The notes beneath the pieces were generated by a model. That model ran no database searches. It saw only the letters and a program-made list of their open reading frames with translations, and was not told where the DNA came from. The position numbers and the translations under genes were made by a program. From a virus (taxonomy: Duplodnaviria > Caudoviricetes), in the IMG/VR virus record IMGVR_UViG_3300042465_007555, positions 1 to 33,228 of that record: a DNA stretch of 33,228 nucleotides. The stretch is one strand, 5' to 3'. Below are positions 1-33,140 of this stretch, piece after piece. Numbering within the stretch: position 1 is the stretch's first letter; the number at the start of each line of letters is the position of its first letter.

Positions 1-127
1 AGCCGCCTTGCCATCAATGCGGCTCAAGACAAGATGTGAGCACCCCGTGAGCTCCTTCAAGATCACCATGACGGATGAGACGGGCAAGGCCGTTGCCACC
101 CTTGAGGCTTGCCTCCGGGGCGCGGGC
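1..127. repeat. Terminal direct repeat, copy 1 (circular assembly overlap)
   Basis: Bases 1-127 are identical to 33102-33228; the head-tail adaptor ends in, and the neck gene starts in, this shared segment. Confidence 0.95.
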
Positions 128-703
128 GATTGGAGCCCGTTTTGGGCGGGCAAGGATGGGCCTATTGCGGAGGCATGGGCCAACAGCCGCCGCGCCATGT
201 TCCTCACTCAAGGGCGCTCCACGGGCACCCCATGGCCCGACTACACCAAGCAAGAGCGCAAGTATTATGTGCCCGTCAAGAAATGGGTGCTGGGTGCCAC
301 CAAGGTCACCAAGCAACACCTCTTGCGGTGGGATAAGAGCGCGGGAGCTGAGCCCGGTGGCCAAGAGCGCCTCTTCCCCTCCATGGCGCTGACCACTCAC
401 AAGGAGTTCATCTACCGCGTGGATGGCAATGTGGCGACCATGGGCACCTCGGTTCCCTACGCCCGCAACCATAACCTTGGGCAGGGTGCATACAATCGCA
501 AGTGGAAGACCAAGCGGGGGGTCAAGGTGATCCAAGTGCCCACCCCCAAGCGGCCCCTGCTAGCCTTTGGGCGGCCCTTCATGTTGGCGGTGCGGAATGA
601 GCTCCAAAGGATTGCCATCAAGCAAGGGGGCAAGGTAGGGGTGACCTCGCAAGAGCTCCGGGAGCGGGCCAAGCTTGCGCGTGCGGTGCGGGGTCTCTCA
701 TGA
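47..703 (+). CDS. Virion morphogenesis / neck protein (Mu gpG / phage tail S-like)
   Basis: Motifs MGTSVPYARNHNLG and TPKRPLL resemble the GTNxxYAxxHxxG...PxRPFL signature; lies between adaptor and tail terminator. GTG start at 47 chosen because it follows the adaptor stop (33140, equivalent to position 39). Confidence 0.7.
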   Translation: MSSFKITMTDETGKAVATLEACLRGAGDWSPFWAGKDGPIAEAWANSRRAMFLTQGRSTGTPWPDYTKQERKYYVPVKKWVLGATKVTKQHLLRWDKSAGAEPGGQERLFPSMALTTHKEFIYRVDGNVATMGTSVPYARNHNLGQGAYNRKWKTKRGVKVIQVPTPKRPLLAFGRPFMLAVRNELQRIAIKQGGKVGVTSQELRERAKLARAVRGLS

Positions 704-1329
704 TAGCAGGATCGGCTAACGGCCCCCAAGTAGTGGCCAACACGGCCAAGGAGCTGGTGGTCGCCAATTGGGCGGTGGTGTGTGATGTGGATTGGCTCAA
801 GGCTATGGGTGCCCCCGGCCTTCCCGCCCCCGTAGCGGGCAACCTCTACACCTCGCACCGCGCCCTCTTCACGGCTGAGACCCAGCCCGCCATGGGGCTC
901 ACGGTGATCCGCACCGATGCCAAGATCACCGATGCCTTGGGGGCCATGGATCAAGTGCATGAGCTTGAGATCACGGTGACCTCCGATTGGGGCTACTATG
1001 ACGGGAGCACGGTCAAGCCGCTGGTGAAGGCCGCGCCCGGAGACCCCGCGATCAAGTTCACGGTGGAGGTCTATGAGACCGCCCTCCGCGCCTATGTGGA
1101 GGGGGTGGTGATGATTCTCACCAGCCCGGTCTACGGCTTCCCCAACTATGATGCCCGCAATGTGGGCACTCCGGGCTTTACCCCCACGGGGATCTTCAAT
1201 GCCTCACCAGCGGCGGGGGTCTCCCCATCCGACTTCGTGGTGGGCGTGGATGATGTGGGATCTTCTTTGATTCAACAGACCGTGCGGGCTACTATCCAAG
1301 TCTCCCAACGGCGCTCTCTCGCAAGGTGA
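700..1329 (+). CDS. Putative tail terminator / tail completion protein
   Basis: 209 aa, ATGA overlap with the upstream gene, directly before the tail tube gene; function by synteny. Confidence 0.55.
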   Translation: MIAGSANGPQVVANTAKELVVANWAVVCDVDWLKAMGAPGLPAPVAGNLYTSHRALFTAETQPAMGLTVIRTDAKITDALGAMDQVHELEITVTSDWGYYDGSTVKPLVKAAPGDPAIKFTVEVYETALRAYVEGVVMILTSPVYGFPNYDARNVGTPGFTPTGIFNASPAAGVSPSDFVVGVDDVGSSLIQQTVRATIQVSQRRSLAR

Positions 1330-1332
1330 TCC

Positions 1333-2418
1333 ATGGCTTCAACCGTTATCGCAAGCAACACAAGTGCGGTCTATGTTCAGACCCAAGCCTCGGTGGGCAC
1401 CGCCATTGCGGTGGGCTCCTTTGTGGCGGGAGATGCCATCCGCATGGTGGGGGCTCCCAAGTTTAGCCCCCGCGGTGCGGGCATCATTGAGCGCACTGAC
1501 ACCATGACCCCCTTTGGCGGTGGTCAAGCGGCGGTCACGGGCTCACGCGGGTGGGATATCACCTTTCAAACTGAGCTGTTTTGGGATGCTGCCACGGCGG
1601 GCGGCACGGTGCCCGCCATGCTCAACACCCAACTTGCGGCGCTCTTCCGGGCTACGCCCTTCTCCATTTCGGGCACCTCGCCCGACTTCACGCTCGCGGC
1701 TCAAGCGGCCTTTGCCACCACCACATGGGCAAGCGGCACCCCCGCCCGCTCCCCCGCCTATGCGGTGCAACCCTTCACAATCTACTATGTGGAGAGCTCG
1801 GGCAAACGCTATGCGGCCTTCGATTGCGTGGCGATCCCCAAGTTCTCGGCTGAGTATGGCCAGCGGGTGATGATTGATTGGACGGTGAAGGGCAAGTGGC
1901 TTGACCCGGATGCATACAACACCACCAGCGCGATCCCCGCCCCTACCTATCCCGCGGCGCAACCCCCGATCGTGGCGCTCAATTGCGCCCTCACCCTCAC
2001 GGGCTACTTTGCAGGGGTCACGGCCCTCACCAAGTGGACTTTCGACCCGGGCTTTGCCTTGGCGGATGTGGGCGATAGCAGGGAGGCCAACGGCTTTGGC
2101 ATCGGGCTCCCCACGCTGGCCACCTATCCCTCCCTTGAGGTGGATGTGGCTGACCTCCCGGAAGGCGCTTCGGCCACCCAAGCCCAGCCCGATTGGACTA
2201 AGGCCTCAAGCAATGAGGTCTTCGGCTCGGCTCTCACGCTGGTGGTCACGGTGGCCGCGGGTGACACCATCACCTTCTCCCTCACCAACCCGCAAGTGAT
2301 CGCGTGGCCCACGGTGGGAGAGACCGATGGGCACCGCTCCCTCACCCTCAAGTTTGGTGCCATCCCCGATGCCACCACTCCGAGCCCGGCCACCATTATC
2401 TTCAATGCGACGATCTAG
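1333..2418 (+). CDS. Major tail (tube) protein, non-contractile tail
   Basis: 361 aa, Ala/Thr/Gly-rich and beta-rich; followed by frameshifted chaperone and tape measure; no sheath gene seen. Confidence 0.75.
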   Translation: MASTVIASNTSAVYVQTQASVGTAIAVGSFVAGDAIRMVGAPKFSPRGAGIIERTDTMTPFGGGQAAVTGSRGWDITFQTELFWDAATAGGTVPAMLNTQLAALFRATPFSISGTSPDFTLAAQAAFATTTWASGTPARSPAYAVQPFTIYYVESSGKRYAAFDCVAIPKFSAEYGQRVMIDWTVKGKWLDPDAYNTTSAIPAPTYPAAQPPIVALNCALTLTGYFAGVTALTKWTFDPGFALADVGDSREANGFGIGLPTLATYPSLEVDVADLPEGASATQAQPDWTKASSNEVFGSALTLVVTVAAGDTITFSLTNPQVIAWPTVGETDGHRSLTLKFGAIPDATTPSPATIIFNATI

Positions 2419-2453
2419 GCCCATCTAGGGCGGTTCAAGGGAAGGAAGGCAAC

Positions 2454-2810
2454 ATGGCAATTGAGTTTGTGGAGAAACATTGGATCACGGTGGAGAGCAA
2501 GCGGGGCACTGCCCGCCTTTGCGTGCGGGAGCCCAACGCCCTTGAAGGGGCACGCTACCTTGGGGCCATCAATCGCTCCCGGGCACTCATGGAGACGGAT
2601 GAGGCCGCGGGCTTTGAGGCGCTCATGGAGACCCATGCGGGCCTCCTCACGGCTTGCATCACCAGCTCAGAGGATTGGAGCCCCGCCTTCCCCGGAGAGG
2701 GCAACACGGCGGAGCGGCGTGAGTGGGTGCTCCGCCTCCATTGGGAAGACCTTTCCAAGGTGGCCACGGCGGTGGCATCGGTGGGCTACCCAAAAACTTC
2801 CGCCGTGTAG
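2454..2810 (+). CDS. Tail assembly chaperone (gpG-like), 118 aa
   Basis: GGAAGGAAGG upstream of ATG 2454 (MAIEFVEK); between tube and tape measure; slippery site near the 3' end. Confidence 0.75.
   Translation: MAIEFVEKHWITVESKRGTARLCVREPNALEGARYLGAINRSRALMETDEAAGFEALMETHAGLLTACITSSEDWSPAFPGEGNTAERREWVLRLHWEDLSKVATAVASVGYPKTSAV
2789..2795 (+). other. Programmed -1 frameshift slippery heptamer C CCA AAA
   Basis: X XXY YYZ heptamer in the chaperone frame (TAC CCA AAA ACT); the -1 frame is open to 3199. Confidence 0.8.
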
Positions 2811-3199
2811 AGTGGCGCGACTATGCACGGCTGACCACCTCCCACGGCTTCCGCTGTTGGGAGTGCCCGGATGAGGTGCGGCACCAACGGGGTTGCACCG
2901 AGGGCTACACCCAAGACCTAGGCTTTGAGACCATGCCACCCAACCCCACCACTTGCCCCGTGCTGACCACCCCGCCCGCGGGGTTTTGGGAGGCGCACCG
3001 CATGGCCCGATGGATCGATCGCGGTAGCCCCGCGGTGGCCTTGGCGGAGGTTGGCACGGCCTCCCTTGACTTGGCGGAGTTCGTCTCGGCTGAGCTCAGA
3101 GAAGGGGTCAAGGCCTATGATGAGCGCAAGCGCAAGACCATGGAGCGCCTCTCCGCCATGACGGAAGGGCTTCGCATAGGAGGCAAGGGCCATGGCTGA
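2795..3199 (+). CDS. -1 frame extension of the tail chaperone (gpGT-like)
   Basis: ORF 2723..3199 is in the -1 frame relative to 2454..2810 and ends overlapping the tape measure start. Confidence 0.72.
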   Translation, partial: NFRRVEWRDYARLTTSHGFRCWECPDEVRHQRGCTEGYTQDLGFETMPPNPTTCPVLTTPPAGFWEAHRMARWIDRGSPAVALAEVGTASLDLAEFVSAELREGVKAYDERKRKTMERLSAMTEGLRIGGKGHG

Positions 3200-5885: not shown

Positions 5886-8413
5886 GCGATCGCATTATCT
5901 TGATCCGGGTGTTGGGCTTGGGCTCTTTGCTCACCAATGCCCAAATGGTCTTCACCTCACGGGGCACTCTCCCCTATCTCGACCCCGCGGCCACCTTGCC
6001 GGGGGTGGTTTCGGACTTGGGAGATCAGTTCTCCTCTGAGATCGGCTTCTTTGAGAGCATGGGGAGCGACCCCTCCACCAGCTTCTCGGTGATCTCCACG
6101 GCGGAGACCCGCGCCGCTTTCTTGGGGCGCCGCAAGGTGGCGGTCTTGGATGTGAACGGTGCACCCGTGGTCACCACCGCCTATGTGCCCCCGCTCTTTG
6201 TGTCGGTGCCCATCGGAGTGAGTGACACCCACTCCATGTTTGTGGGCCAGCTGATCCGCATTGGCACCATAGCTTGGGAGGTGACCAATGTGTTGGATGC
6301 CACCAACATCCGCGCCCGCCGCATTTGGGGCTCACCCCGCACGCCCATCCCCATGATCCTAGCAGGGGAAGAGGCCGTGGGCATGGTGGTCTATAATCCC
6401 ACGCTCTCCACGGGCAATGTGGAGGGCTTGCCCATTGTGGTGAGCACGGCGGAGGTCACGGCCACCAGCCGCTCGGAGGAGGAGGTGATCTTCCGCGGGC
6501 AGATCACGCGGGTGGGGGTAGAGACCTCACGCGGGGCGAGTAACCAGATCACGGTGCAATGTGGGAGCCTCATGGGCTACCTCCGCAACGCCCCCTTCCG
6601 CCCTCCGATAGCTTCCACGGCCTCCCTCTTGGCAGGGGCCAATGCCTTTGACCCCAATTCCCTTGACACCTCACGCACGGGCTCAATCGCGCAACTCACG
6701 GTTGGCATCAATACCGGGGTCTATGGGGTGCCAACATGGGCGCAACCGGGAGCGGAGCCCGTGGAGGGGGATGAATACAAGACCTCAATGAGGGCGTGGC
6801 AGATCCGAGATGGCGGGCGGGGGGTAGTGATCCCATTTGCAACGGATTTTGGGGGCTTGCCCGTGCCCATCACGGTGGAGGGTGAGGTTGCCACTCTGCA
6901 ATTTAGTGGGTGGCGCAACTATTTGAGTGATATCTACTTCGGTGCCCCTTGGATCTGGGTCTTCGATTCCACCTATTACACCCCCAACGGCTCAAGCCCC
7001 TTGACCGATAGCATGGTGACCAACGGCGTGGATGAGGGCGTGAGGTTTTCAGATCGCAACTTCTACCAAGTGACCGCGGTGTGTGAGAGCTCCTTTGTGG
7101 GCTCCACTACCTCCACCGCCGTCAACCTCATCACGGATCTCCTCTTTGGCTTTGTGGATGGCACCAATGGCAACTATGGCAATCGCGGGGCCACTGAGGC
7201 CGCTTGGTTGCCCTATGCCGCGGATGAGCCCGACTTGTCTTGGGGGCTGGTGGATCGCCCCTCCCTCCGGGCGTTGCTCCAAGGCCGTGAGGATGTATTC
7301 CCTAGCAGCGCGGGATCCGATATTGAAGGGGCGCAAAACCTCCGCGTGCTCCCCTATGATGCGGGCAACGCCAAGACCGTGGGGGATGTGCTCGGCCTCA
7401 TCCTCAAGCGGCTTGGCGGCTTCATGGTCTATGACCGGGGCAAACTCCGCTTTGGCTCATGGGCGGTCAACAATCCGATCCCCACCGTGGTGGATGATGA
7501 TGCCTTGGCGGAGCCCGCGATCTCCTTGGACTTTGACCGCACCGCTTGCCTCCAAACGGTGGAGGTGGAGGTTGGGGTCTACCGTTGGCGGAATGATTCG
7601 GGCTCGGATGCCCGGAGCACCATCAAGCGTCCGGTGACCAACCTTGACCTTGGCGCGGCGGGCATTGGCAAGACCACTCAGATGGGCAGCTTTACGGCGT
7701 GGAATGAAGGGGCCACGGTGGTCAACAACTTTATCCTTGGCAGCTCATGGTTTGCCAATGCCAACCAAGCGATCGTGCGATACTCCCAACCCGCTGCCAA
7801 GGTGGTGGTCACCTATCGCAATGAGGTCTCCGATCTGGTGGTGGGTGAGACCGTGGCCTTCTCCACGGCCTATCTCCCAAGCGCCACGGGTGAGATGGGG
7901 GTGGCGCTGGCCACCGGGATCGTGCTCAAGGCGGCCCGCTCATGGAAGACCCCCACCACTGAGTATAGCCTTCTTCTCTTTGGCTATGTGGGGGCCAGCG
8001 CCTCCAAGGTGCCCCTCATTGGAGCCTCGGCCCGTTGCACGGGGGTCGTCACGGGCAGTGATGTGGAGGTGGAGCCCGTTTGGTTCACCCGCGGATCCTC
8101 CGCCACGGGCGGGGCTCCCACCTCCGATGTGGCGGCCTTCGCCCAAACGGCTCTCTTGGCGGGCACTTCCTATGTGGCCGTTGTGCTCCTTGATGCCAAT
8201 GGCACCGAGGTGGGCGGCATTACTGACGCGGCCACGCCCTTGGTGGCAACCAATGAGCTCCGCTTCCCCGGGCCGCCTTTCCTTGGCACCACCATCCTCC
8301 CGGGCTATGTGATCACCTTGACAATCTTCCCTCAAGGGTGGGATGCCTTGCAAGCGGCCTCCGATGGCACGGTCTCGGGTGAGGCGGCCTTGGCCTTCCC
8401 GTGGGTGACCTAA
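5882..8413 (+). CDS. Large tail tip / baseplate hub protein
   Basis: 843 aa, ATGA-coupled; hub-like segments (VIFRGQITRVG...ITVQCGSLMGYL; ILKRLGGFMVYDRGKLRF). Confidence 0.6.
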   Translation: MSDRIILIRVLGLGSLLTNAQMVFTSRGTLPYLDPAATLPGVVSDLGDQFSSEIGFFESMGSDPSTSFSVISTAETRAAFLGRRKVAVLDVNGAPVVTTAYVPPLFVSVPIGVSDTHSMFVGQLIRIGTIAWEVTNVLDATNIRARRIWGSPRTPIPMILAGEEAVGMVVYNPTLSTGNVEGLPIVVSTAEVTATSRSEEEVIFRGQITRVGVETSRGASNQITVQCGSLMGYLRNAPFRPPIASTASLLAGANAFDPNSLDTSRTGSIAQLTVGINTGVYGVPTWAQPGAEPVEGDEYKTSMRAWQIRDGGRGVVIPFATDFGGLPVPITVEGEVATLQFSGWRNYLSDIYFGAPWIWVFDSTYYTPNGSSPLTDSMVTNGVDEGVRFSDRNFYQVTAVCESSFVGSTTSTAVNLITDLLFGFVDGTNGNYGNRGATEAAWLPYAADEPDLSWGLVDRPSLRALLQGREDVFPSSAGSDIEGAQNLRVLPYDAGNAKTVGDVLGLILKRLGGFMVYDRGKLRFGSWAVNNPIPTVVDDDALAEPAISLDFDRTACLQTVEVEVGVYRWRNDSGSDARSTIKRPVTNLDLGAAGIGKTTQMGSFTAWNEGATVVNNFILGSSWFANANQAIVRYSQPAAKVVVTYRNEVSDLVVGETVAFSTAYLPSATGEMGVALATGIVLKAARSWKTPTTEYSLLLFGYVGASASKVPLIGASARCTGVVTGSDVEVEPVWFTRGSSATGGAPTSDVAAFAQTALLAGTSYVAVVLLDANGTEVGGITDAATPLVATNELRFPGPPFLGTTILPGYVITLTIFPQGWDALQAASDGTVSGEAALAFPWVT

Positions 8414-9801: not shown

Positions 9802-9804
9802 CCC

Positions 9805-11805: not shown

Positions 11806-12206
11806 CCATGATTGAACAAGATCCCACCATCACTCTCTCCGATGCGTTGGCACGAGCTGCTATTGCGGAGGCCGAGGTGGCCCGCCTCAATCGGGGCATT
11901 GCCATTGAGATCGCCGCCGCCGATCGGAAGGCTGCCCGCAAGCTCTCGATCCTCCGCCTCATCTTCCTTGGCATCGCGGCGCTCATGGGCTTCCTTGGCA
12001 TCCTCACGCTCATCAATTGGTATGTGCCCGGCAGCGTCGATAAAGACGGCATCGGGACATCCTACTTTCAAATGAGCAAAGATATCCTGCTAGTTATGAC
12101 GGGCATCTTGGGCTCGGCCATGGCCAATGTATTCGACGCGGGCAGCCGTAGTCCGGGCAGCGCGGGCGATCGCGGGGCGGCCCCACCTGAGACCCCGCCC
12201 GACTAG
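11802..12206 (+). CDS. Two-TM membrane protein in the lysis cassette
   Basis: 134 aa, GTGA-coupled; TM segments ILRLIFLGIAALMGFLGILTLINW and ILLVMTGILGSAMANVF. Confidence 0.6.
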   Translation: MTMIEQDPTITLSDALARAAIAEAEVARLNRGIAIEIAAADRKAARKLSILRLIFLGIAALMGFLGILTLINWYVPGSVDKDGIGTSYFQMSKDILLVMTGILGSAMANVFDAGSRSPGSAGDRGAAPPETPPD

Positions 12207-12865
12207 GCTTGGAGCATGAGGGGCCCCACGGGCAGGGCGCTCTTGGGCTCAAGGGCTAGCCAAGCGGCCCATGAGGCTTGATCCATGGGCACGCTCTTGG
12301 TGAGCTCATCCCACGGGGCCAGCGGGCGGAGCGGCCCACCTTCTTGGATGCGGTAGAGCCTCCGGGCACGGGCTTTCCCGCCTTCCCTCCGATTGACCCA
12401 AGTGGTCAATTTCTTTTCTTGGAGGAGCGGGTAGAGGTCTTCAATCTTCGCCCACCAGCAGCCCGCATAGCCCCGCGGCTTGAACCCATTGATGAGCACC
12501 GCGGGATTGATCCTCATCACAAAGACCACCGCCACGGGGGCGCATTGCTCGGCGGCAACCTCCGCATAAGATCGGATCTGTTGATCCTCCATGACGGTCT
12601 CAATTGGCCCCTTGGTGCCCCCCTCTTGCCACCAATCATGCTTGGCCTTGACCTCCACCAGCGTGGCCCCCTTGCCCACCTCAAGCTTGATGAGGTCGGG
12701 CATGGGCCGCTTTTGTGCATCATAGTAGGATGCTCCCCCTACCGGGTGATCCGCTGGCCAAACGCGAATCTTTGGATTGTGTGCAAGGTAGGCGGCAACG
12801 GCCTCTTGCGCCACCAGCCCGATGGCATGGGCATCCTCAAAGGTGCGGTGCTCAAGGCGGCTCAC
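12203..12865 (-). CDS. PD-(D/E)XK restriction-endonuclease-like nuclease
   Basis: IGLVAQEAVAAYL helix, then MPDL...LVEVKAK catalytic motif and QIRSY helix; last gene of the early arm. Confidence 0.65.
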   Translation of the reverse strand: MSRLEHRTFEDAHAIGLVAQEAVAAYLAHNPKIRVWPADHPVGGASYYDAQKRPMPDLIKLEVGKGATLVEVKAKHDWWQEGGTKGPIETVMEDQQIRSYAEVAAEQCAPVAVVFVMRINPAVLINGFKPRGYAGCWWAKIEDLYPLLQEKKLTTWVNRREGGKARARRLYRIQEGGPLRPLAPWDELTKSVPMDQASWAAWLALEPKSALPVGPLMLQA

Positions 12866-13962
12866 TTGTCACCCCCGCTGGTGGTGTTGCGGAGTGCCTT
12901 TTGCTCCCGCTTGAAGATGGCTTGGAGAGACCGCTCAAGGCGCTTGGCTTTGGCGGCGGCTGCTATGCCATCGGCCAGCTCTTGAAGTTTGGCCTTGGCC
13001 CTCTCCTCCCTTGCCGCCCGTTGCTTGGCGGTGCGCTCCCGCTCCTTGGCCGCGGCCTTGGCCTTGACCTTGGCAGCATAGGCGGGATCCTCCGCCATCC
13101 GCTCCTTGAGGCGATCCCGCCGCTTTGCATACTCCTTGGCCTTGCGGGCTGAGATAGCCTCCGGGGTGTTGCGGGCAGCCTTGGCGGCGGCGGTAGCGGC
13201 TCGGGCATCCGCATTGCGGGCACGCTCCCGCTCCCTTTGCTTGGCCTTCCATTGGGCGTTGTATTCCTTATCTTTGGCCCGCTTCTCGGCCAGCCGCTTG
13301 GCATGGGCAATGTTAGCAGCCTTGGCGGTCTCCTTGCGGCGGGCCTCACGGTTGGCCTCCACCGCGGCCTTCTTGGCCTCGGCCTCTTGCTCCTTGGCGG
13401 CCTTCTCCGCTGCTATCGCGGCAATGCGGGCCACGGCCTCCGCCTTCTCCTCCTCGGTGAGGCGCGGGCGGGCTTGGGGGGTCTTGCGGGTGGAGTGGCG
13501 CGGCCCGGTCTCCTTGAGGCTCACCCATCCCTTGCTCTCCACGGGGGCAAGAGGGGCGGGCGCGGTGGCGGGGGCTACGGTGGCAGGGGCCAGCGGTTCA
13601 ACCTTGGGGATGAGGGCCACCGCGGCCTTCTTGCCATGGCGGCGGATGGCTTGCACCTCCCGGAGCGTGGGGGTGTCTTGGGAGCGGTTGCGCCCTCCTC
13701 CGTTGCGGGTGCGGGCTTCTTGCTCCTTGGCCTTCCGATTCTCATGGGCAAGCCAAGTGTGAGCGGCGGCCACAAGGTCGCAAGAGGCCTCCCACTCGGT
13801 GAGCGTGGGCAAGGGGCAAGTGGCCAGCAGGGGTGAGAGCCATGCCCCGCGGTCTATCACTAGGCGGCGCATGGCTATGGCCTCCGGGTGGCCAGCGTGA
13901 GCCCGATCGGATGCGGTGCGGTGGCGGATGGCTGCGGGATGTTGGGTGTTGGTAGCGGTCAC
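12862..13962 (-). CDS. Ala/Lys/Arg/Glu-rich helical hypothetical protein
   Basis: 366 aa, GTGA overlaps at both ends; C-terminal half is low-complexity charged helix. Confidence 0.65.
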   Translation of the reverse strand: MTATNTQHPAAIRHRTASDRAHAGHPEAIAMRRLVIDRGAWLSPLLATCPLPTLTEWEASCDLVAAAHTWLAHENRKAKEQEARTRNGGGRNRSQDTPTLREVQAIRRHGKKAAVALIPKVEPLAPATVAPATAPAPLAPVESKGWVSLKETGPRHSTRKTPQARPRLTEEEKAEAVARIAAIAAEKAAKEQEAEAKKAAVEANREARRKETAKAANIAHAKRLAEKRAKDKEYNAQWKAKQRERERARNADARAATAAAKAARNTPEAISARKAKEYAKRRDRLKERMAEDPAYAAKVKAKAAAKERERTAKQRAAREERAKAKLQELADGIAAAAKAKRLERSLQAIFKREQKALRNTTSGGDK

Positions 13963-15191
13963 GGGTCTCCAAAGAGTGAGAGTTGGCGGGTGGCTTCAAA
14001 GGCGGCGGCGGCCTCCTCGGCCTCCAAGCGGAGGGCGTAGGCAATGCGGGCAGCGGCGATCTCAAGGTAGGAGGGGTCAAGGTCGCACCCTGCAAAGCGG
14101 GCACCTTCCAAGATGGCGGCCTTGCCCGTGGAGCCCGACCCCATGAAGGGATCTAGCACTAGGCCACCGGGCGGGGTGACTAGGCGCACAAGGTGGCGCA
14201 TGAGCTCAGTGGGCTTGACGGTGGGATGATGATTCCGGGCAAGTGAGGTGCGGAGGTTGGGCACATGGTGGTCGGTCTCCCGCCCATCGGTGCGCCTCAC
14301 CTCGGCCAGCTCTTCGCACCCCTCCTCCCGATCGGCGGATGAGGTCTTGGCGCAATAGAAGAAGCGTGAGGCCTCACCGAGGGGAGCCTCGGCCTCCGTG
14401 GATCCATCATGCATGAAATTGGCGGGCCAGCGGCCTTGGGTGCTGCCCGTGGCATAGGAGGGCGCAAGGTTGCCCCCGTGATAGCCCATCTCGGCGGTGT
14501 TGCGGCGGCTGGTGACCTCCGCCCCTATCCTACACCCATCCACATTGATGGCCCCCGTGCCATGCTTCAAGAGGTTGGCGGCCACGGTGCCCTCCAAGGG
14601 CTTGCGGGCCATGAGGATCGGCTCCCAAGCGGGCTTGAGGGCGGTGCCCCATCCTTGCCATGCGGAGGCCTCGGGCGTGGCGGGGCTGGTGAGGTCAAAG
14701 GTTTGATCTCTTGCTCCCGCGGGCTTGCCACCTTCGCGGCTCTTGGCCTCAAAACCTTGAGAGCTCACCCCGCTAGAAGATTGCCCCACCACCTCCCGCG
14801 TGGCTCCCGCTGCCCGATCGATCGCCTTGAATGCGTCAAGAGACTTGGGGAAGCCCGAGCCATAGACCCAACAGCAGCAATCGCGGATCTCCCACCCCGC
14901 ATCCTCAATGGCAACGGCCATGCGGTGAAAGGCTCGAGTGCCTCCAAAGGCCAAGAGATAGGCTCCGGGCTTGGCCACCCTCAAGGCCTCCGCCCAAAAG
15001 GTCACACCGGGCACGCCCCGATCCCACTCCTTGCCCATGAAGCCGCGCCCGCTGGTGGCATTCTCCAAGGTGGTGGTGGGGCCGCTGGCCAGCCCGTAGG
15101 GTGGATCGGTGACGATGGCATCCACCGAGGCCGCATCCATGGCGGCCATGCTCACGCGGCAATCTCCGAGGTGGAGAGCGTAGCGGCTCAC
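13959..15191 (-). CDS. DNA amino-methyltransferase (N6-adenine/N4-cytosine, beta class)
   Basis: LHLGDC, VDAIVTDPPY (motif IV) precedes HPTVKP and VLDPFMGSGSTG (motif I). Confidence 0.92.
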   Translation of the reverse strand: MSRYALHLGDCRVSMAAMDAASVDAIVTDPPYGLASGPTTTLENATSGRGFMGKEWDRGVPGVTFWAEALRVAKPGAYLLAFGGTRAFHRMAVAIEDAGWEIRDCCCWVYGSGFPKSLDAFKAIDRAAGATREVVGQSSSGVSSQGFEAKSREGGKPAGARDQTFDLTSPATPEASAWQGWGTALKPAWEPILMARKPLEGTVAANLLKHGTGAINVDGCRIGAEVTSRRNTAEMGYHGGNLAPSYATGSTQGRWPANFMHDGSTEAEAPLGEASRFFYCAKTSSADREEGCEELAEVRRTDGRETDHHVPNLRTSLARNHHPTVKPTELMRHLVRLVTPPGGLVLDPFMGSGSTGKAAILEGARFAGCDLDPSYLEIAAARIAYALRLEAEEAAAAFEATRQLSLFGDP

Positions 15192-23713: not shown

Positions 23714-23808
23714 GATAGCGCGTCAACAGACACCACCTCGGGCAGCCACCCCCTCCACGCTGCCCGAGGCGGTGATCCGTGGGGCAAGACCTCCATGAGG
23801 GCAAAACC

Positions 23809-24171
23809 TTCCCAACCTTCCCAAAACCAAAAGCGAAGTGGGAAGAGAGGGAATGTGACCTAGAGCCTTTGATCTTTGGGCATTTTTTGATCCTTCTTCC
23901 CACTTTTCCCACTTTTCCCACTCATATTGCCTTATGTGCGTGCGCGACCCCCTCCCCCCTCTCACCAGCTCACCCCCTCAAGTGATCGCTATAAAGCCCT
24001 CTTGGAGTGGGAAGATTGGGAAGAAGCCCGTTTTTGGACCCTATCCCGTTGCATTTGCTCGAGTTTTTCTCTGTCCAGTGGTTTGGGAAGGTTTGGGAAG
24101 AGTGGGAAGGTCGCACCGGGCAGCCCAACCAACCCTCCCCTTGGAGCTGGCCAGCCTTCCCACCCTTCCCA
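23809..24171. repeat. Iteron-like TTCCCA/TGGGAA array in an AT-richer intergenic region; putative replication origin
   Basis: 13 copies counted (7 TTCCCA, 6 TGGGAA), mostly in clusters with 9-10 bp period, between the divergent primase and terminase genes. Confidence 0.7.
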
Positions 24172-24319
24172 CCGCCTTGACCTCTCACCACGCTTGCACC
24201 ATAGTGGCCCTAGGCTCTCACCCTCCTTCGGCTTTAGCGGGTCACGGGGCGGAGGATGAGGGCCGCCTCTTTGTGCTCCACCAGCCCGCCAAAAAGTTTA
24301 CACTCGCGCGAGGTCGCCC

Positions 24320-24754
24320 ATGGCCAAGCTCTCCTCCGAGACCATCAAGATCGTCACCGATGGCATCCGCATTGGCATGACCGTGGAGGCCGCTGCCCGC
24401 CTTGGTGGGATCACCCGCATGACCCTCCACAAGTGGCGCAATGCGGAGCCGGGCACCCTTGATGCTGAGCTTTTGGCGGAGCTTGAGGAGGCCATGGATC
24501 TGGCCATGGCGGAGGGCCAGCGGGTGCTCTTGGAGAGGATGCAACGCCACTCCGCGGGGGCCAAGGATAGCAAGGGCCGCCCCATCCGCGACTTCTCCGA
24601 GTGGCAAGCCACCAAGTGGATCCTTGCGGCCCGCCACAAGATGGGCGTGGAGCAACGGGTGGATGTGACCTCGGGTGGCCAGCCCGTCAAGTATGTGGTG
24701 ACCATCCCCGTGGTGGGCCGCATTGATGATGAGCCCGATGAGGGCGGGGAGTGA
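24320..24754 (+). CDS. Terminase small subunit
   Basis: N-terminal HTH (GMTVEAAARLGGITRMTLHKW), WQATKWIL and RVDVTSGGQPV motifs; upstream of TerL. Confidence 0.75.
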   Translation: MAKLSSETIKIVTDGIRIGMTVEAAARLGGITRMTLHKWRNAEPGTLDAELLAELEEAMDLAMAEGQRVLLERMQRHSAGAKDSKGRPIRDFSEWQATKWILAARHKMGVEQRVDVTSGGQPVKYVVTIPVVGRIDDEPDEGGE

Positions 24755-24858
24755 TGGCCGCCCTAGCCTTCACACCCGCGGCGGCTTGGGTGCTCCTCCT
24801 TGCCCTATGGAGCGCCGTGGTATGGGTAGCGTGGTCTTGGATGCGGGGCGGCAAGTGA
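24754..24858 (+). CDS. 34-aa hydrophobic peptide between TerS and TerL
   Basis: TGATG overlap with the TerS stop and GTGA overlap with the TerL start; MAALAFTPAAAWVLLLALWSAVVWVAWSWMRGGK. Confidence 0.6.
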   Translation: MAALAFTPAAAWVLLLALWSAVVWVAWSWMRGGK

Positions 24859-26126
24859 GGGCTGCACTTGAGGTGCCCATTGTGTTGCCCAAGCTCTACC
24901 GCAAGCAAGCGGCGGCGGTGTGTGACCCCACGCGGATCACTTGCATTGAGAGCACCACCAAGGCGGGCAAGACCATCGGTTGCATTGTGTGGCAGATCGG
25001 GCAGGTGATGAGCGGCCCGGAGGATGCGGAACATTGGTGGGTGGCCCCGGTCTATGAGCAAGCCATGATGGCCTATCGGTTGGCGTGGTCTCTCTTGCGT
25101 GGTCAGCAGGGCTTCAAGCAAGCCCTAGCGGAGAAGGCGATCCTATGCCCGGGCGGGCGGCGGTGGAGCTTCCGCTCCGCTGACAAGCCCGACAACCTCT
25201 TTGGATCGGCGGTCACCAGCGCGGTCTTGGATGAGGCCTCACGCATGAAGGATGATGCGGTGGATGCCATCTTCTCCACCACCACCCGCACCCGCGGCCC
25301 CATGCGCCTCATTGGCAATGTGCGGGGGCGTGCCAATCGCCACTACCAATGGAGCCGCAAGGGTGAGGCTGGTGAGGAGGGCTTTGCCTACCATCGGATC
25401 ACGGCGGATGATGCGGTGGCGGCGGGGGTCTTCCATGCGGATGATGTGGAGATGGCGCGGCGCTCCATGCCCGATGCGATCTTCCGGGAGCTCTACTTTT
25501 GTGAGCCCGCCGATGATGGGGGCAACCCCTTTGGCATTGAGGCGATCCGCTCTTGTGCTGAGCTCAATGGCGGCAAGCCCACGGGGCGGCCCGTTGCGGT
25601 GTGGGGTCTTGATATCGCCCGCAAGCGGGATTGGGCGGTGCTCATTGGCCTTGACCACGGGCGGCAAGTCGCGGCCCTCCACCGTTGGCACGGCCTATCC
25701 TTTGGCGGGCTGGTGGGCGAGGTCTCCCGCATAGTGGGCAAGGGCTCCCGGGCTTGCGTGGTCTATGATGCCACGGGCGTGGGAGACGCGGTGGGAGAGC
25801 AGCTGGTGGCGGCCCGCGTATGGGTGGAGCCCTTCATCTTCTCCTCCGCCTCCAAACAAGGCATCATGGAGGGGCTAGCCCTTGCTTTGCAGCAGGGGCG
25901 CACCTCGGTGGTGGATGGCCCCCACCGGGCTGAGCTTGAGGCCTTTGAGTATGATGTGAAGGCGGGGCGGGTGGTCTATGGTGCCCCCTCTGCTATGCAC
26001 GACGATACGGTTTGCGCCCATGCCTTGGCTTGGTGGGGTGCGGAGCGGTTTGGTGTAACTAACGCGGTGCGCCGCGGGATTATCTCCGCCCCCACGGGGC
26101 CAGCTGCTAGGGGCTCAACATGGTGA
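24855..26126 (+). CDS. Terminase large subunit
   Basis: Q motif LYRKQ, Walker A STTKAGKT, Walker B VLDEA, nuclease motifs GLDIARKRD, YDATGVG, HDDTVCAHALA; GTG start at 24855 preferred. Confidence 0.92.
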   Translation: MRAALEVPIVLPKLYRKQAAAVCDPTRITCIESTTKAGKTIGCIVWQIGQVMSGPEDAEHWWVAPVYEQAMMAYRLAWSLLRGQQGFKQALAEKAILCPGGRRWSFRSADKPDNLFGSAVTSAVLDEASRMKDDAVDAIFSTTTRTRGPMRLIGNVRGRANRHYQWSRKGEAGEEGFAYHRITADDAVAAGVFHADDVEMARRSMPDAIFRELYFCEPADDGGNPFGIEAIRSCAELNGGKPTGRPVAVWGLDIARKRDWAVLIGLDHGRQVAALHRWHGLSFGGLVGEVSRIVGKGSRACVVYDATGVGDAVGEQLVAARVWVEPFIFSSASKQGIMEGLALALQQGRTSVVDGPHRAELEAFEYDVKAGRVVYGAPSAMHDDTVCAHALAWWGAERFGVTNAVRRGIISAPTGPAARGSTW

Positions 26127-29100
26127 GAGGTCAAATCTTGGATAGCAGGGGCAACCCCATCTCGAGCGAACGGATGAAGACGGGCACCAACCTCATCTCC
26201 GCCCGTAACTTCTTGGGCGGCCTCCCGGATGCGGATGCCAACCTTGCCTTGCTCCCCATGGAGCGCCGCGGTGTTGGCGGGCTGGTGGGCCTCTACCGTG
26301 AGATGATGGACACCCATGTGGGCATCTCCGCCGCGGTCTATTGGGCGATCACCGAGGCGGCCTCCCTCCCCAAGGAGGTGGTCTGGCCTCACACCCAAGA
26401 CCCCGATGCGGAGGCCGAGGCCTTCATGGCCATTTGCCGCACCGCGGTCTTGGATGAGGCGGTGGTCTATGACGGCCTCTTGGAGGGTAGCAACGCCCTT
26501 TGGGTCTACCCCCTTGTGGATGCGTTTGTGGGCTTTGGCCTCATGGCCCCGCGGCTGATGAGCGGGGGCGCGGTAGAGTGGTATCCTATCTCTCAAAATG
26601 CCGTGATGTTGTGGAGGCCCAACGGCTACCTCCTTGGCGGGGTGCGCTTCTCCACCCCCAACGGCTATGATGATATTGATGCGGCTGAGCTGGTGCACAC
26701 GGTGCACGGCTTTGCGGGGGCTGGTGAGTTTGAGGGGCGCTCCATGCTCCGCTCATGCATCCAACCCTTTGCCATTTGGAAGCAGATCGCGATCTCCGCT
26801 GGTATCTACCAGAACCTCCAAAACGGCTTCCTTGACATTAGCTTTGAGCCCTCGGTGGCGGAGGCTGATGTGGCGGAGTTCAACACCTTTGCCCAAGCCT
26901 TCCAAGATGGCCAGCGGCGCTACCTCCTCCGCCCCAAGAATGTGGATGTTGAGATGCGTTACCCCTCGGGCACCCCCGCGGATGTGGTCTCTCAATTGGA
27001 GTATTGGGATCGCCAAATTGAGAAACAGCTCAATGCACCCTTGGCGGGCATAGCTCAGTTTGGCAGCCGGGCCATGGCGGAGACCTTGGATGGGGCCAGC
27101 GGGCGGAAGGCCAAGGCGTGGATCAATGGCATCTTTGAGCGGTCAAGCCGCGGGATGTTCGGATGGCTTGCGCGGCAAGTGGGCTACACGGGCAAGCTCC
27201 CCAAGGTTCAAGTGCAATCGGCGGAGCTCACCACGGGCATGGATGGGTGGGGTGCCTATGTGAGCGGGGTTCAATCGGGCCTCCTCACCCGCGGCCCGGA
27301 CGATGAGGCATGGGGGCGGCGGGTGATCGGTGCGCCCGAGCTCCCGGTGAAGGAAGAGCAGGATGTGGTCAAGGATACCCCCGCGCCCCTCTTGGCGGGC
27401 TCTTTGCAGATCGCCCAAGAGGTGCTCACCAAGCTGGTGGCATCGGCGGCCAACCCCGTGCCCTTGGCGGCGGAGGCGGCCATGGTGTTGCTCCAAGCGG
27501 CGGGTCTTCAAGAGGCCAACGCCCGCACCATGATTGAAGCTCAGATCCGGGTAGTGCCCTTCACGGCGGCCCCCGTTGGTGCGGTGCCCGTGGAGGGCGT
27601 GGCAGTTGTAAAGGATTCCTTTACACCTCCGCCCGTTGCGCCCGCGCCCGATGATGAGCCCCCAAGCGGAGGAGGCGGAGGCGGCGCACCACCAGCGGCC
27701 AAGGAGGAGGTCACGCTCCCGGGCTCCAAGATCACGGTGCCCGCGGCCATTGGGAGTGCGCCCGCCTTTGCCCCTGCTACCTCCGCCAAGGATGGTGGCA
27801 ACCTTGCGGAGGCGGATGTGGACTTGGAGCCCACCAGCGGGATGGCAGCGGCGGCGGAGCGTGCCCTTGCATGGCGGGATGAGCATGGCCGCGGGGGCAC
27901 CGAGGTGGGAGTGGCCCGCGCCCGTGATATCAAGAATCTCCGCAACCTCTCCCCCGACACGGTGCGGCGGATGCGGGCCTATTTCACCCGCCATGCCTCC
28001 GATGCCAAGGCGGAGGGCTTCAACAGCGGAGAGGAGGGCTTCCCCTCGGCGGGTCGCATAGCGTGGGATCTATGGGGCGGAGATGCGGGCGCGGCTTGGG
28101 CGGAGCGGAAGGTGGCGGAGCTTGAGCGTGCGGCTGGTGGCAACCTCTCCGATGGGCTGATCTTGGCGGCAAGCCTAGCAGACCACCCGGAGGTTGCGGT
28201 GCCCGACACGGTGAAGGCCGCGGCGGCGGCGGCCCTTGAGGCGCACCGCAAGGCGGCAAGCAAGACCGCTGACCCGGAAGCCATCCTCTTGGCCCGCGAC
28301 CTTGCGGCGGGCAAGCGGCTTGCGTGGGATCGGGTGCTCAAGCTGGCCCGCTACTTTGCGGAGGTCTACCCCAAGGCGCGGGCCTCCAAGAGCTTCTCCG
28401 ATGGCGGCCCGGTCTTCCACCGCTATGAGCTCAGAGGTGGGGATGCGTGCCGCGATTGGGTGCGGGGCTTGCTCACGGCCTATGCCATGGCAGCCCACCA
28501 GCGGGCCAGCCGCCTCAATGATGGGGGAGGGTGCGGATGCATCGAGTGCAGCGGCGACCTCGGAGATGGGGAAGCGGAAGGGGTCTTGGCCGTTGGTGCT
28601 GATGGCAAGGAGTTTGTGACCTACCGTGAGCTCCGCCCGGAGGAGGAGGTGGTGGCATGGGTGACCTTGGCCGATGCCCGCCGCGCCTTGGATGTGGAGC
28701 TTGGCTTTGCCCTTGACCGCGTGGCCGCTGACCACCGCAACGCGGTGAAGCGTGCATTGCGGGATGGTTGGCAGCCCGGTGAGCAAGATGCCATTTGGAG
28801 CGCCTTTGTTCCGCAATACGCCAAGGTGTTGACGGATGCGGCGGCCACCTTGCGCGGTAGCATCTCGGCGGAGGTGCTCAATGAGGCTGCCCGGAGTGCG
28901 GGCGCGGGAGCCCTCACCAAGATGAGCGCGGCGGAAGCGGCGGCGGTCTCCTCCACCATGGCGGCCTCCGCCAACGCCCAACTTGCGCGGGCCGCTGGCC
29001 TCACTCAAATGGCGGCGGAGACCATAGCAAACCGGGTGGGCGGGGAGATCTCCGATGCGGTGCTCGGTGGTGCTGACCCCTCCAAGTGGAAGAGCAGGAT

Positions 29101-29398
29101 CACCCCGCTTGGCTTGGCGGATAGTGCGCGGGCCTCTCGCAACCAAGTGGAGGGCGCGGCCCGTGTGGCCACCTATGCTGACACGCCCGAGGCCAAGGGC
29201 GTGGTGCCCTCGCTCTTGGTGCGGTCAAGCATCCCCGATGGCAAGCGGTGCTCCATTTGTGCGGAGCGGGATGGGGAGGAGGTCAACATGGCGGCCAACC
29301 CCGATGCTGAGATCCCGGAGCTGCCCGACCCGGAGTGCCTAGGTGGTGCGAACCGTTGCCGATGCGGCTGGTTTGTCGTCTATGGCACCTTGAGCTAG
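26120..29398 (+). CDS. Portal protein fused to two internal repeat domains and a MuF/SPP1 gp7-like C-terminus (1092 aa)
   Basis: Follows TerL; N-terminal ~410 aa portal-like (LYREMMDTHVGISAAV, GRSMLRS, EYWDRQIEKQL, GSRAMAE); C-terminal DGKRCSICAERDG...PECLGGANRCRC motif. Confidence 0.8.
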   Translation: MVRGQILDSRGNPISSERMKTGTNLISARNFLGGLPDADANLALLPMERRGVGGLVGLYREMMDTHVGISAAVYWAITEAASLPKEVVWPHTQDPDAEAEAFMAICRTAVLDEAVVYDGLLEGSNALWVYPLVDAFVGFGLMAPRLMSGGAVEWYPISQNAVMLWRPNGYLLGGVRFSTPNGYDDIDAAELVHTVHGFAGAGEFEGRSMLRSCIQPFAIWKQIAISAGIYQNLQNGFLDISFEPSVAEADVAEFNTFAQAFQDGQRRYLLRPKNVDVEMRYPSGTPADVVSQLEYWDRQIEKQLNAPLAGIAQFGSRAMAETLDGASGRKAKAWINGIFERSSRGMFGWLARQVGYTGKLPKVQVQSAELTTGMDGWGAYVSGVQSGLLTRGPDDEAWGRRVIGAPELPVKEEQDVVKDTPAPLLAGSLQIAQEVLTKLVASAANPVPLAAEAAMVLLQAAGLQEANARTMIEAQIRVVPFTAAPVGAVPVEGVAVVKDSFTPPPVAPAPDDEPPSGGGGGGAPPAAKEEVTLPGSKITVPAAIGSAPAFAPATSAKDGGNLAEADVDLEPTSGMAAAAERALAWRDEHGRGGTEVGVARARDIKNLRNLSPDTVRRMRAYFTRHASDAKAEGFNSGEEGFPSAGRIAWDLWGGDAGAAWAERKVAELERAAGGNLSDGLILAASLADHPEVAVPDTVKAAAAAALEAHRKAASKTADPEAILLARDLAAGKRLAWDRVLKLARYFAEVYPKARASKSFSDGGPVFHRYELRGGDACRDWVRGLLTAYAMAAHQRASRLNDGGGCGCIECSGDLGDGEAEGVLAVGADGKEFVTYRELRPEEEVVAWVTLADARRALDVELGFALDRVAADHRNAVKRALRDGWQPGEQDAIWSAFVPQYAKVLTDAAATLRGSISAEVLNEAARSAGAGALTKMSAAEAAAVSSTMAASANAQLARAAGLTQMAAETIANRVGGEISDAVLGGADPSKWKSRITPLGLADSARASRNQVEGAARVATYADTPEAKGVVPSLLVRSSIPDGKRCSICAERDGEEVNMAANPDAEIPELPDPECLGGANRCRCGWFVVYGTLS

Positions 29399-29658
29399 GG
29401 CTCCGCCACTAGGGTGGGGCTAGGCTTGCACCACGGGCAGGGGCAGCCCTTGAGGCGGTAGCGTGCGGGGGTGTTGCCGCTGCCCGCCTCCACCCCGTTG
29501 ATCTCGCCCTCCATGATGAGGCGGCCAAGCTCGGAGCGGATCGCCTTCTCTCCTCCGATGCCCACCAGCCTTGAGAGGTGCGCGGGAGAGGGGTGGAAAT
29601 CCACCGCGTGGCAACGGGTCAAAAGATCTAGGATCTCTCTTTGGCGGCGGGTGACCAT
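29395..29658 (-). CDS. Small winged-helix protein resembling the LexA DNA-binding domain
   Basis: TRRQREILDLL...PSPAHLSRLVG...LIMEGEI; C-terminal CPCPWC; no peptidase domain. Confidence 0.65.
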   Translation of the reverse strand: MVTRRQREILDLLTRCHAVDFHPSPAHLSRLVGIGGEKAIRSELGRLIMEGEINGVEAGSGNTPARYRLKGCPCPWCKPSPTLVAEP

Positions 29659-31014: not shown

Positions 31015-31069
31015 CCCAACCCCTCACCCCTTCAACCAACGGCCCCTCCACGGGGCAAGGAGATAGCAC

Positions 31070-31498
31070 ATGGCACTTGGATCGCTGACATATAAGACCC
31101 CCGTCAAGATCGCCCGCATCGGCTCTAACCTCACCGATAAGGCGGGCTTTATCGTCTCGCTCACGGATGAGGATCGGGTGGGCCTCAACACCGCCGTTGC
31201 AAATCGCCCCTACGGCGTGATCGTGGTGGGATGCGATAGCCTCACCCCGGGCACCTACCCGAGCCAGATCGCCGCGGGAGCCCTTGAGATCGTGGATGCC
31301 TACGGTGCCACGATCGTGGCCATGGCGGGCGGTACGGGTGTGACCTTCGGCAACGCGGTTTGTGTGACGGGCACGGGCGCGTGTAACGATGTTCCCGCCC
31401 TCGGCGCGGGTGAGTGGATCGTGGGCTATGCCCTCTCCGCCGCCGCCGCTGGTGAGAGCTTCTTGCTCTCCTTCCAGCCCGTTGCGCAGCAGGCCTAG
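31070..31498 (+). CDS. Capsid decoration / cement protein
   Basis: 142 aa Gly/Ala/Val-rich (PYGVI...VGYALSAAAAGE) between scaffold and capsid; AAGGAG RBS. Confidence 0.65.
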   Translation: MALGSLTYKTPVKIARIGSNLTDKAGFIVSLTDEDRVGLNTAVANRPYGVIVVGCDSLTPGTYPSQIAAGALEIVDAYGATIVAMAGGTGVTFGNAVCVTGTGACNDVPALGAGEWIVGYALSAAAAGESFLLSFQPVAQQA

Positions 31499-31548
31499 CC
31501 TACGGGCCGCCCCCATCTCACCACTTCAACCTTGACTAAGGATCGACC

Positions 31549-32562
31549 ATGCCCACGCCCTTCATGCCCCCCGTTGGAATCAATACCGGAGCCCTCAAGC
31601 CCGGCATTTTGCAGCGGATCTCCCTCTTCCGCGGCGGTGCTCAGGACACCAACAGCCTCACCCTTGCGCCGATCGTCAAGGTCGCCACCCGTGCGGGCTT
31701 CTATCATTTCTTTGCGGAGAATGATGCCTTGCTCACGGGCTCCCCGCAGAACCCGCTGACCCCGGTTGACTATGACACCCCGGCCAGCCCGGGCGGTATG
31801 CGGATCTCGGCGGGCACCTTCAACTCCAATCTCTACCGTTGGGGCTTCCAAGTGTTCCCCCTCCAGCAGATTGCGGAGTTCGCGGCGCGTGGTGAGGATA
31901 TCACGGCGCGGGCGGCCTTCAAGCTTGGCGGCCAAGCAAAGCAGCACCACGCCAAGGTGCTCGGCGCGGTGCTTGACACCAATGGCAACTTCTCCGCCAC
32001 TCCGAGCTCGGCGGGCGGCGCGGCCACTCCCCTCCAAAATGAGATCAACGCCCTCCTCATCGACCTTGCTAAGCAGGGCGTGGATCTCAATGAGGGCCGT
32101 TGGGTTGCCACTTGCAACCTCAACACCGCCAACGATATGTTGCAGTTCAACACCGTTGCACAGCAGGGCTACGCCCTTGCCTACGCGGGCGGCACTGACA
32201 CGGCCCGCACGGGGGCCACGGATATGAGCCAGCTCAAGGCATGGTTCCTCTCCAAGCTCATCTGCCCGCTTGAGCTGGTGGTGCTCAATCAGTTCCTCCC
32301 GACCACGGGTGACACCGTTGGCGCTCCCGTGATCGCCAATGGCCGCTTGGCCATCTTCAAGGTTGCGGAGAGCTATGGCGATTCGGGCTTTGTCCAGACC
32401 ATGACCCCCGACCCCAACGCGGCCCTTGGCCAGATCTACACCTACGATGTGCGGCAGGGGCTGATCGGCATCGGCCTCCATGTTGAATCCGACTACGGGA
32501 TCACCGTCCTCGGCGGCCCGGCCAACAAGTGGGCGGCTTGCCTCACGGGTGTCTCCCTCTAG
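31549..32562 (+). CDS. Major capsid protein
   Basis: 337 aa, canonical position, TAAGGA RBS, strongly biased codon usage; no diagnostic motif recognised. Confidence 0.75.
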   Translation: MPTPFMPPVGINTGALKPGILQRISLFRGGAQDTNSLTLAPIVKVATRAGFYHFFAENDALLTGSPQNPLTPVDYDTPASPGGMRISAGTFNSNLYRWGFQVFPLQQIAEFAARGEDITARAAFKLGGQAKQHHAKVLGAVLDTNGNFSATPSSAGGAATPLQNEINALLIDLAKQGVDLNEGRWVATCNLNTANDMLQFNTVAQQGYALAYAGGTDTARTGATDMSQLKAWFLSKLICPLELVVLNQFLPTTGDTVGAPVIANGRLAIFKVAESYGDSGFVQTMTPDPNAALGQIYTYDVRQGLIGIGLHVESDYGITVLGGPANKWAACLTGVSL

Positions 32563-32570
32563 AGGGTGAC

Positions 32571-32601
32571 TAGGTGGGAGCTCCTCCGGGGGCTCTCCAC
32601 T
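32571..32601 (+). terminator. Stem-loop after the capsid gene (attenuator or mRNA-stabilising hairpin)
   Basis: AGGTGG-GAGCTCC-TCCG-GGGGCTC-T-CCACTT; no long U-tract. Confidence 0.45.
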
Positions 32602-32657
32602 TGTGAGCCCACCGTGACCCTTCCTTCCCACGGTGGTCTCTCAAGCGGAGGATCAAG

Positions 32658-33140
32658 ATGGCGCAAGTTTATCTCTTTGGAGTGGTCAAGGCTGATATTG
32701 GGCGGTATCTCCCGCGGATCGCCTTCAACACTGAGACCGCCCCCACGGCCCTTGAGGCCGATGAGATCGTTACTGACCACGCGGCGGATCTTTGCGCCTA
32801 CCTCTATGGCATGGGGGTGGATGTGCAATACTTGGCCACCGCCACCACCAGCGCCCTCTACCGCACCTGCCAACGCTTCATTATCCTCCGCCTAGCGGCC
32901 CAAGTGATGAGGATGCGCAACCAAAACGACACCACCGCGGCGGAGGCGTGGGATGGTGAGGCCGATCGCATCATTGAGCGGCTCCGCAAGCTCCCCCAAG
33001 ATATGGGTGCGGAGCGGCCCACGGGGGTCAACAGCCCCAACATTCTCCACTCCAATGCGACCTATGCGGCGGAGCTCTACGCCAAGCAAATGAACAGCCA
33101 GAGCCGCCTTGCCATCAATGCGGCTCAAGACAAGATGTGA
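32658..33140 (+). CDS. Head-tail adaptor (Mu gp36 / SPP1 gp15 position)
   Basis: 160 aa helical protein after the capsid gene; GGAGG RBS. Confidence 0.6.
   Translation: MAQVYLFGVVKADIGRYLPRIAFNTETAPTALEADEIVTDHAADLCAYLYGMGVDVQYLATATTSALYRTCQRFIILRLAAQVMRMRNQNDTTAAEAWDGEADRIIERLRKLPQDMGAERPTGVNSPNILHSNATYAAELYAKQMNSQSRLAINAAQDKM

Follow-up and report, generated by a model that had tools for sequence, protein, structure and literature searches.

Genome-wide avoidance of short DNA words in a clade of lake phages and its possible causes

Why would a GC-rich phage genome contain not a single CCAGG or CCTGG? The question is raised by IMG/VR virus record IMGVR_UViG_3300042465_007555, a stretch of 33,228 nucleotides (hereafter the window) that holds one complete circular tailed-phage genome of 33,101 bp with a GC content of 64%. 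A first-pass annotation, made by eye from the letters, had described a loss of CCWGG and other palindromes with an excess of their C-to-T derivatives, and had attributed it to long-term restriction-site avoidance and/or deamination of host-methylated cytosines without Vsr-type repair. We find that selection keeps the missing words out, that neither composition nor codon use accounts for their absence, and infer host restriction as the selective agent.

Extent of the missing words

CCAGG and CCTGG are indeed absent from all 33,228 bases, where Markov models of order 0, 1, 2 and maximal order predict 127, 191, 65 and 16 CCWGG sites. In two genome-wide synonymous-codon shuffles that leave proteins and codon usage unchanged, the 30.5 kb of coding DNA contain 73 and 62 sites. 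The depletion is thus not due to amino-acid, codon or dinucleotide composition, the effect that the first-pass annotation had named as a possible refutation. The other palindromes it called scarce are also rare against order 0 expectations (TCGA 23 vs 109, GGWCC 1 vs 126, GCCGGC 0 vs 37), and GRCGYC occurs once in all (GGCGCC 1, GACGCC/GGCGTC 0). Most words it called common are in clear excess on the same scale: CCAAG/CTTGG 348 vs 70, CTCAAG/CTTGAG 79 vs 13, GATGCC/GGCATC 62 vs 23, GCTGGC/GCCAGC 65 vs 41, and AGACC/GGTCT 147 vs 70. Only the supposed abundance of CCTAG/CTAGG proved mistaken, with 41 copies against 70, 38 and 72 expected at orders 0, 1 and 2 (1.27-fold in the codon-aware model below). 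The purge is wider than that annotation described, extending to GTAC (2 sites), ACGT (3), TTAA, GASTC and CGGCCG (0 each) and many asymmetric words, while CAG/CTG overall stands at 0.28 of expectation. The pattern is even across all 36 genes scored.

A search with the large terminase gathered 35 viral loci at 67–98% identity, with cultured phages below 40%. Clade A comprises subclade A1 (the window and G402), subclade A2 (G403–G405 and G416) and a basal member, G406, an 11-kb fragment (L142); G402–G404 share 84–90% nucleotide identity with the window. Nine genomes outside clade A (G407–G415) form the sister set, of which some comparisons use five or three. The codon shift noted earlier, with CAA preferred for Gln and CTC, CTT and TTG over CTG for Leu, holds: CAA makes up 65% of Gln codons in the window vs 11–39% in five sister genomes, and Leu is encoded by CTC (44%), CTT (22%), TTG (20%) and CTG (10%). 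Further shifts were seen in GAT (70%), TAT (51%) and TTT (46%), for which the five sister genomes show 8–32%, 6–29% and 9–34%, respectively.

We measured avoidance with a codon-aware model in which each synonymous choice is modelled given its flanks and one site counts about twice. With third-base preference fitted, near-zero values are seen for 23 palindromic classes and, once these have been fitted as well, for a further 20 asymmetric 5–6-mers; all such classes are statistical patterns that overlap one another, not enzymes. Observed/expected (O/E) counts are 0/163 for CCWGG, 0/124 for GGWCC, 3/121 for GRCGYC, 4/105 for ACGT and 4/74 for GTAC, each less than a tenth of an expectation that exceeds 15 sites, the threshold applied for restriction-site avoidance in non-temperate double-stranded DNA phages. 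Asymmetric examples include CCAGT 0/61, CACAG 2/56, CGACCG 3/54 and CGCCAG 0/34, and the CAG survivors sit mostly behind a handful of upstream triplets. A GpC shield was ruled out, as CGCAG, CACAGC, GACAGC and CGCCAG are near zero despite containing GC. Among relatives, 15–16 of the 20 asymmetric words have O/E ≤0.2 in G402–G404, vs 0–4 in five sister genomes.

The number of near-zero classes sets the clade apart. At equal codon numbers there are 36 in the window, 37 in G403, 8–25 in sister genomes, and 0 and 1 in the shuffles. In 5,800 codons the window has 31, G402 35 and G404 29. The benchmarks, taken as 20-kb stretches except for MMP17 (whole genome), have near-zero words too but in fewer classes: T7 12, phiKMV 13, Anabaena phage A-4L 15, Microcystis phage Ma-LMM01 7 and Meiothermus phage MMP17 2. 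The same pipeline applied to T7 recovers GATC and CCWGG. Likelihood gain per codon is 0.28–0.30 in the window, G402 and G404 vs 0.008–0.12 in the benchmarks, and by this measure avoidance in the clade is three to four times as strong as in T7. With a gene-free measure, the top 14 of 94 (overlapping) 15-kb stretches all belong to clade A.

Selection, cytosine decay and lineage turnover

Purifying constraint on specific words is seen in their failure to reappear. On the terminal branches of G402–G404, relatives not used for choosing CCWGG as the test word, CCWGG was created once vs 23.3 expected. Between A1 and A2, none of 211 synonymous CCWGG opportunities was taken (23.3 expected), nor were any for GTAC (0/178), ACGT (0/134), ACTGG (0/128) or CACAG (0/161). 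Of the two explanations offered at first, restriction-site avoidance is supported by these counts, by the shuffles and by the replication of the asymmetric words; deamination is not.

Under the deamination account, loss of host-methylated 5-methylcytosine (5mC) without Vsr repair turns CCWGG and other words into C>T derivatives. CCAAG/CTTGG is enriched 1.5-fold, the phage has no Vsr, TTG is preferred in the C-Leu-G context (256/655), and escapes from CCWGG alone show a mild C>T excess (120/298 vs 102 expected). However, the other-strand product CTA is not preferred in C-Leu-G (52/655), where CTT, a transversion, is commonest (305), and codons preceding Trp end in A in 85 cases, T in 81 and G in 52, with a T share below that of controls. 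The enriched words had been proposed to be single C>T neighbours of the depleted ones, but transversion neighbours of CCAGG are equally enriched (CCATG 1.54 and CAAGG 1.37, vs CCAAG 1.50 and CTAGG 1.27 by C>T), and the summed O/E of neighbours is 1.02 for C>T, 0.96 for T>C and 0.91 for transversions from C. C>T escapes are in fact under-used over 14 words (289/1,428 sites vs 359 expected). Single changes at GGWCC sites between lineages comprise 9 C>T/G>A vs 17 transversions, and CTTGAG is a sink of CTGGAG via G>T (9/21 sites) and also of CTCGAG. Thus, no C>T specificity is found. The lost words also include TTAA, without a suitable C, and many asymmetric words containing or centred on A, and the phage methyltransferase is not a C5 enzyme. 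Mutation hotspots at 5mC are roughly tenfold, and one CCWGG creation vs 23 expected would demand a loss rate far beyond that. We regard decay of methylated cytosines as very improbable. In E. coli, Dcm methylation and Vsr very-short-patch repair concern CCWGG and its CTWGG derivative (PMC12369378); the phage is unlike a mirror image of that system, as the C>T-specific two-strand products predicted from it were tested for and not found.

The avoidance signature marks one clade, and sister clades avoid other sets. Tetranucleotide profiles correlate with the window at r ≥0.90 in 36 of 178 loci, many overlapping and all from clade A; the next value is 0.58. CCWGG counts are 2, 0, 1 and 0 in G402–G405, 15 in the 11 kb of G406, and 37–121 in the nine sister genomes. 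Sister-specific avoidance includes GGWCC and GCCGGC in G408, GCTGR in G410, and GATC in five of the nine. G406 also retains 20 CGCCAG and 17 CTCGAG, yet its CAG content is as low as that of the window; the CAG deficit is thus independent of CCWGG loss.

Words also turn over between the subclades. Counts in two A1 vs two A2 genomes are 1 and 2 vs 65 and 61 for GGWCC, 1 and 3 vs 48 and 28 for GRCGYC, and 1 and 4 vs 33 and 33 for CTGGAG, with the direction reversed for CTSAG (47 and 48 vs 12 and 4). GCGGAC, too, is missing from A1 but occurs in A2. At the positions it covers, G406 is without the word in 11/11 cases for GGWCC, 6/6 for GRCGYC and 5/5 for CTGGAG, and A2 fills such positions at 1–2.4 times the background rate, which fits release from selection. 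The A2 words are most simply a regain after such release, with parallel loss as the alternative.

Candidate agents of selection

Our preferred reading, to which we give a probability of roughly 0.7, is selection against the target sites of an enzyme-rich host. The lineage has shed about 40 short words through synonymous codon choice, probably because selection purged genomes carrying unmethylated targets of the many restriction-type systems proposed for the host population. The odd codon use (CAA, GAT, TAT, CTT, TTG) and the surplus of CCAAG, CTTGAG and AGACC would then be escape routes left open rather than products of decay. The palindromic words match orthodox Type II sites, among them those of EcoRII (CCWGG), AvaII (GGWCC), AcyI (GRCGYC), NaeI (GCCGGC), EagI (CGGCCG), RsaI (GTAC) and MseI (TTAA). 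For the asymmetric words the candidate systems are Type IIS enzymes (ACTGG matches the site of BsrI and GAGTC that of PleI), MmeI-type IIG enzymes or bacteriophage exclusion (BREX)-like systems. An A occupies the penultimate position in 15 of the 20 asymmetric words vs a baseline of 37–43%, and upstream context outweighs downstream context for CAG, GAG and AAG.

Several observations weigh against this reading. The host was not found, with one phylum surveyed, and no word is thus linked to an enzyme; the near-zero classes, being overlapping patterns, do not count enzymes. The position of A among all near-zero 6-mers shows no preference. G406 keeps its 15 CCWGG yet otherwise shows the signature, CCWGG escapes taken alone have the C>T excess given above, and replication in the three relatives is not fully independent because they share ancestry with the window. 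In PMC6286503, moreover, Type I and IIG sites were not avoided. After 44 near-zero classes are fitted, deficits persist in TCG/CGA (998 vs 1,594 expected), GAA/TTC (532 vs 823) and ACG/CGT (839 vs 1,116), which may reflect further weak motifs or another cause such as host bias.

A mutation or repair bias driven by the host, or adaptation to host codons, could yield much of the signature; the host would then look alike, and only the sharpest zeros would be restriction sites. The diffuse TCG, ACG, GAA and GAC deficits left after fitting suit this account, as does a preference for T over C at the end of two-fold codons that precede G (Phe 20/106, Asp 26/198). However, on terminal branches C>T is no faster at CG than elsewhere (0.026 vs 0.023) and lacks strand symmetry there (0.037 vs 0.014), codon shuffles bring the words back, and 20 myxococcal genome stretches from one phylum, 19 of them chosen for low GCCAGG, are unlike the window (r ≤0.45). 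We consider such a bias an unlikely source of the signature. CpG hypermutation was ruled out by the lack of a CG hotspot for C>T on terminal branches.

A second candidate is encoded by the phage itself. Its product, a predicted PD-(D/E)xK nuclease-like protein of 220 aa, might cut host DNA at one or more degenerate words while the phage, lacking them, stays safe, which would cover the clade-wide core, e.g., CCWGG or CAG words. This open reading frame (ORF) is present in the window and in all four clade-A records covering the locus and in none of the nine sister genomes, whose ORFs at the same locus show no detectable homology to it. PD and EVK are invariant in nine of nine aligned copies and kept in distant homologues, and the protein has six representatives in 1.84 billion proteins. 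Weak matches were found to Hjc and RecU (PDB, E 0.07–0.1) and to VRR-NUC, and the best viral match is uncharacterised. However, there is no PDB fold match at E ≤0.001, the predicted model has a predicted local distance difference test (pLDDT) score of 62, and co-occurrence with the clade is a single evolutionary event. Alleles are 43–91% identical and discordant with the genome tree (window–G404 86%, window–G402 50%), whereas the variable words track that tree: patterns splitting A1 from A2 number 99 and 1, and those splitting by allele 0. The nuclease allele is ruled out as the cause of the variable words. Nor can one enzyme cover about forty classes, and a self-encoded nuclease is improbable even as the source of the core.

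The only methyltransferase of the phage is an N6-A/N4-C amino-methyltransferase whose nearest solved relatives are CcrM and DpnA; it is present in all three complete clade-A relatives and in one of nine sister genomes (G408). GATC, of which the window keeps 242, is a candidate for its specificity. GATC is eliminated (0–3 sites) in sisters G407, G409, G411, G412 and G413, all without this methyltransferase. Clade A and G408, which encode the enzyme, retain GATC, but so do G410, G414 and G415, which lack it. The window holds 29 CGATCG vs 1 CGACCG/CGGTCG and 0 CGGCCG. Residual TCGA overlaps GATC at 36 of 73 sites in four genomes (~17 expected), vs 0/34 in G406 (6.5 expected), and three sister genomes show no excess. 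These overlaps would fit GATC methylation, by a host or phage enzyme, that shields overlapping sites.

G414 carries two adjacent ORFs (L158:10669–12401) with MmeI methyltransferase and MmeI target-recognition/C-terminal domains, in which no nuclease domain was found. Judged from these domains the pair looks like a captured protective IIG methylase, and its presence makes it plausible that hosts of the family field such systems.

Host, genome context and meaning

A terminase profile search of genome contigs returned one locus, on a contig of a Persicimonas metagenome-assembled genome (MAG), at 44% identity. This MAG was rejected as the host, its genome being rich in GCCAGG. The survey of host genomes covered one phylum: GCCAGG occurs in all 401 searched genomes of the Persicimonas phylum (lowest, 235 in 3.7 Mb), and 19.9 kb of window DNA gave no acceptable spacer-like perfect match against them, only methyltransferase and low-complexity matches. 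Cluster names and cultured-phage matches are inconsistent as to host taxon. The nine GCGATCGC copies are no pointer to a cyanobacterial host, since sister genomes hold 7–11. All 24 listed runs holding the phage are lake water metagenomes. No integrase was found among 48 ORFs scanned, nor a host-flanked copy among 49 metagenome loci, all on contigs ≤36 kb and judged by size.

Recognisable genes include those for terminase, primase/helicase, RecE/RecT, resolvase, endolysin and the N6/N4 methyltransferase (Table 1). The 1,092-aa gene directly after the terminase is probably, by sequence resemblance, a portal fused to head-assembly domains: an 80-residue stretch (residues 570–647) resembles other phages, with 60–64% identity to the capsid start or portal end of Roseobacter phages and 44–47% to Synechococcus phages S-CBS1 and S-CBS3. 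The small ORF that follows has a weak LexA DNA-binding domain match and is conserved in relatives. Upstream of the primase lies a candidate replication origin, a non-coding stretch in which about 12 TTCCCA/TGGGAA repeats occur in both orientations (by eye). G408 encodes a 574-aa ResIII/DEAD helicase (L145:9224–10948) with no counterpart in the window.

Table 1 Features of the window and their coordinates
Feature	Position	Strand	Remark
Complete phage genome (one unit)	1..33101	.	Direct-terminal-repeat record, 100% complete; both strands and every gene show the avoidance signature
Sole GRCGYC site (GGCGCC)	6126..6131	.	Site count
220-aa ORF, predicted PD-(D/E)xK nuclease-like	12203..12865	-	Clade-specific; two genes downstream of methyltransferase
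Amino-methyltransferase, N6-A/N4-C family	13959..15191	-	DPPY motif; PF01555 E 1.8e-29
Non-coding stretch with repeats	23790..24175		Candidate replication origin
Sole GGWCC site	24036..24040	.	Non-coding, between primase and small terminase, inside 23790..24175
Large terminase	24723..26126	+	Query that collected the 35 clade-defining loci
1,092-aa gene	26120..29398	+	Probable portal fusion
Small ORF, weak LexA match	29395..29658	-	Between portal-like and scaffold-like genes
127-bp repeat of bases 1–127	33102..33228	+	Circular assembly overlap

Site avoidance is already known; what stands out here is how far it goes and that it takes in asymmetric words. Rusinov et al. 2018 (PMC6286503) report that non-temperate double-stranded DNA phages eliminate 7.1% of Type II sites. 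Like those phages, the window has nearly eliminated palindromic 4–6-bp words far beyond composition; unlike them, it has ~23 palindromic classes and 20 asymmetric words near zero. MmeI-family IIG targets are asymmetric, 6–7 bp long and methylated at the adenine next to last (PMC2731913), as are the targets of BREX (PMC8565348), with GGTAAG as the E. coli site. The asymmetric 5–7-bp words, 15 of 20 with a penultimate A, resemble the targets so described, and GGTAAG is absent from the window. However, no such enzyme is tied to the phage's host, the position test over all words is flat, and orthodox Type IIS sites are likewise asymmetric. Among open texts, we found no report of this phage group in the literature.

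In clade A, unlike in its sister clades, avoidance is so strong that it reshapes codon use and the entire k-mer profile, and for phages of this kind predicting the host from composition can fail. The avoided words are a plausible fingerprint of the host methylome; as a list they make a concrete prediction that could identify the host. Should the asymmetric words prove to be targets of IIG or BREX systems, they would be a clear exception to the rule that avoidance in phages is confined to orthodox Type II sites. We put forward more tentatively, and with some doubt, that a lytic lake clade is constrained by numerous, stable asymmetric defence motifs of the N6-methyladenine type (MmeI-type IIG or BREX-like) no less strictly than by Type II palindromes, contrary to the published survey. 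If so, the pan-methylome of an uncultured high-GC host, one under an extreme load of defences, could be read lineage by lineage from the missing words, and the switches between subclades would date host shifts.

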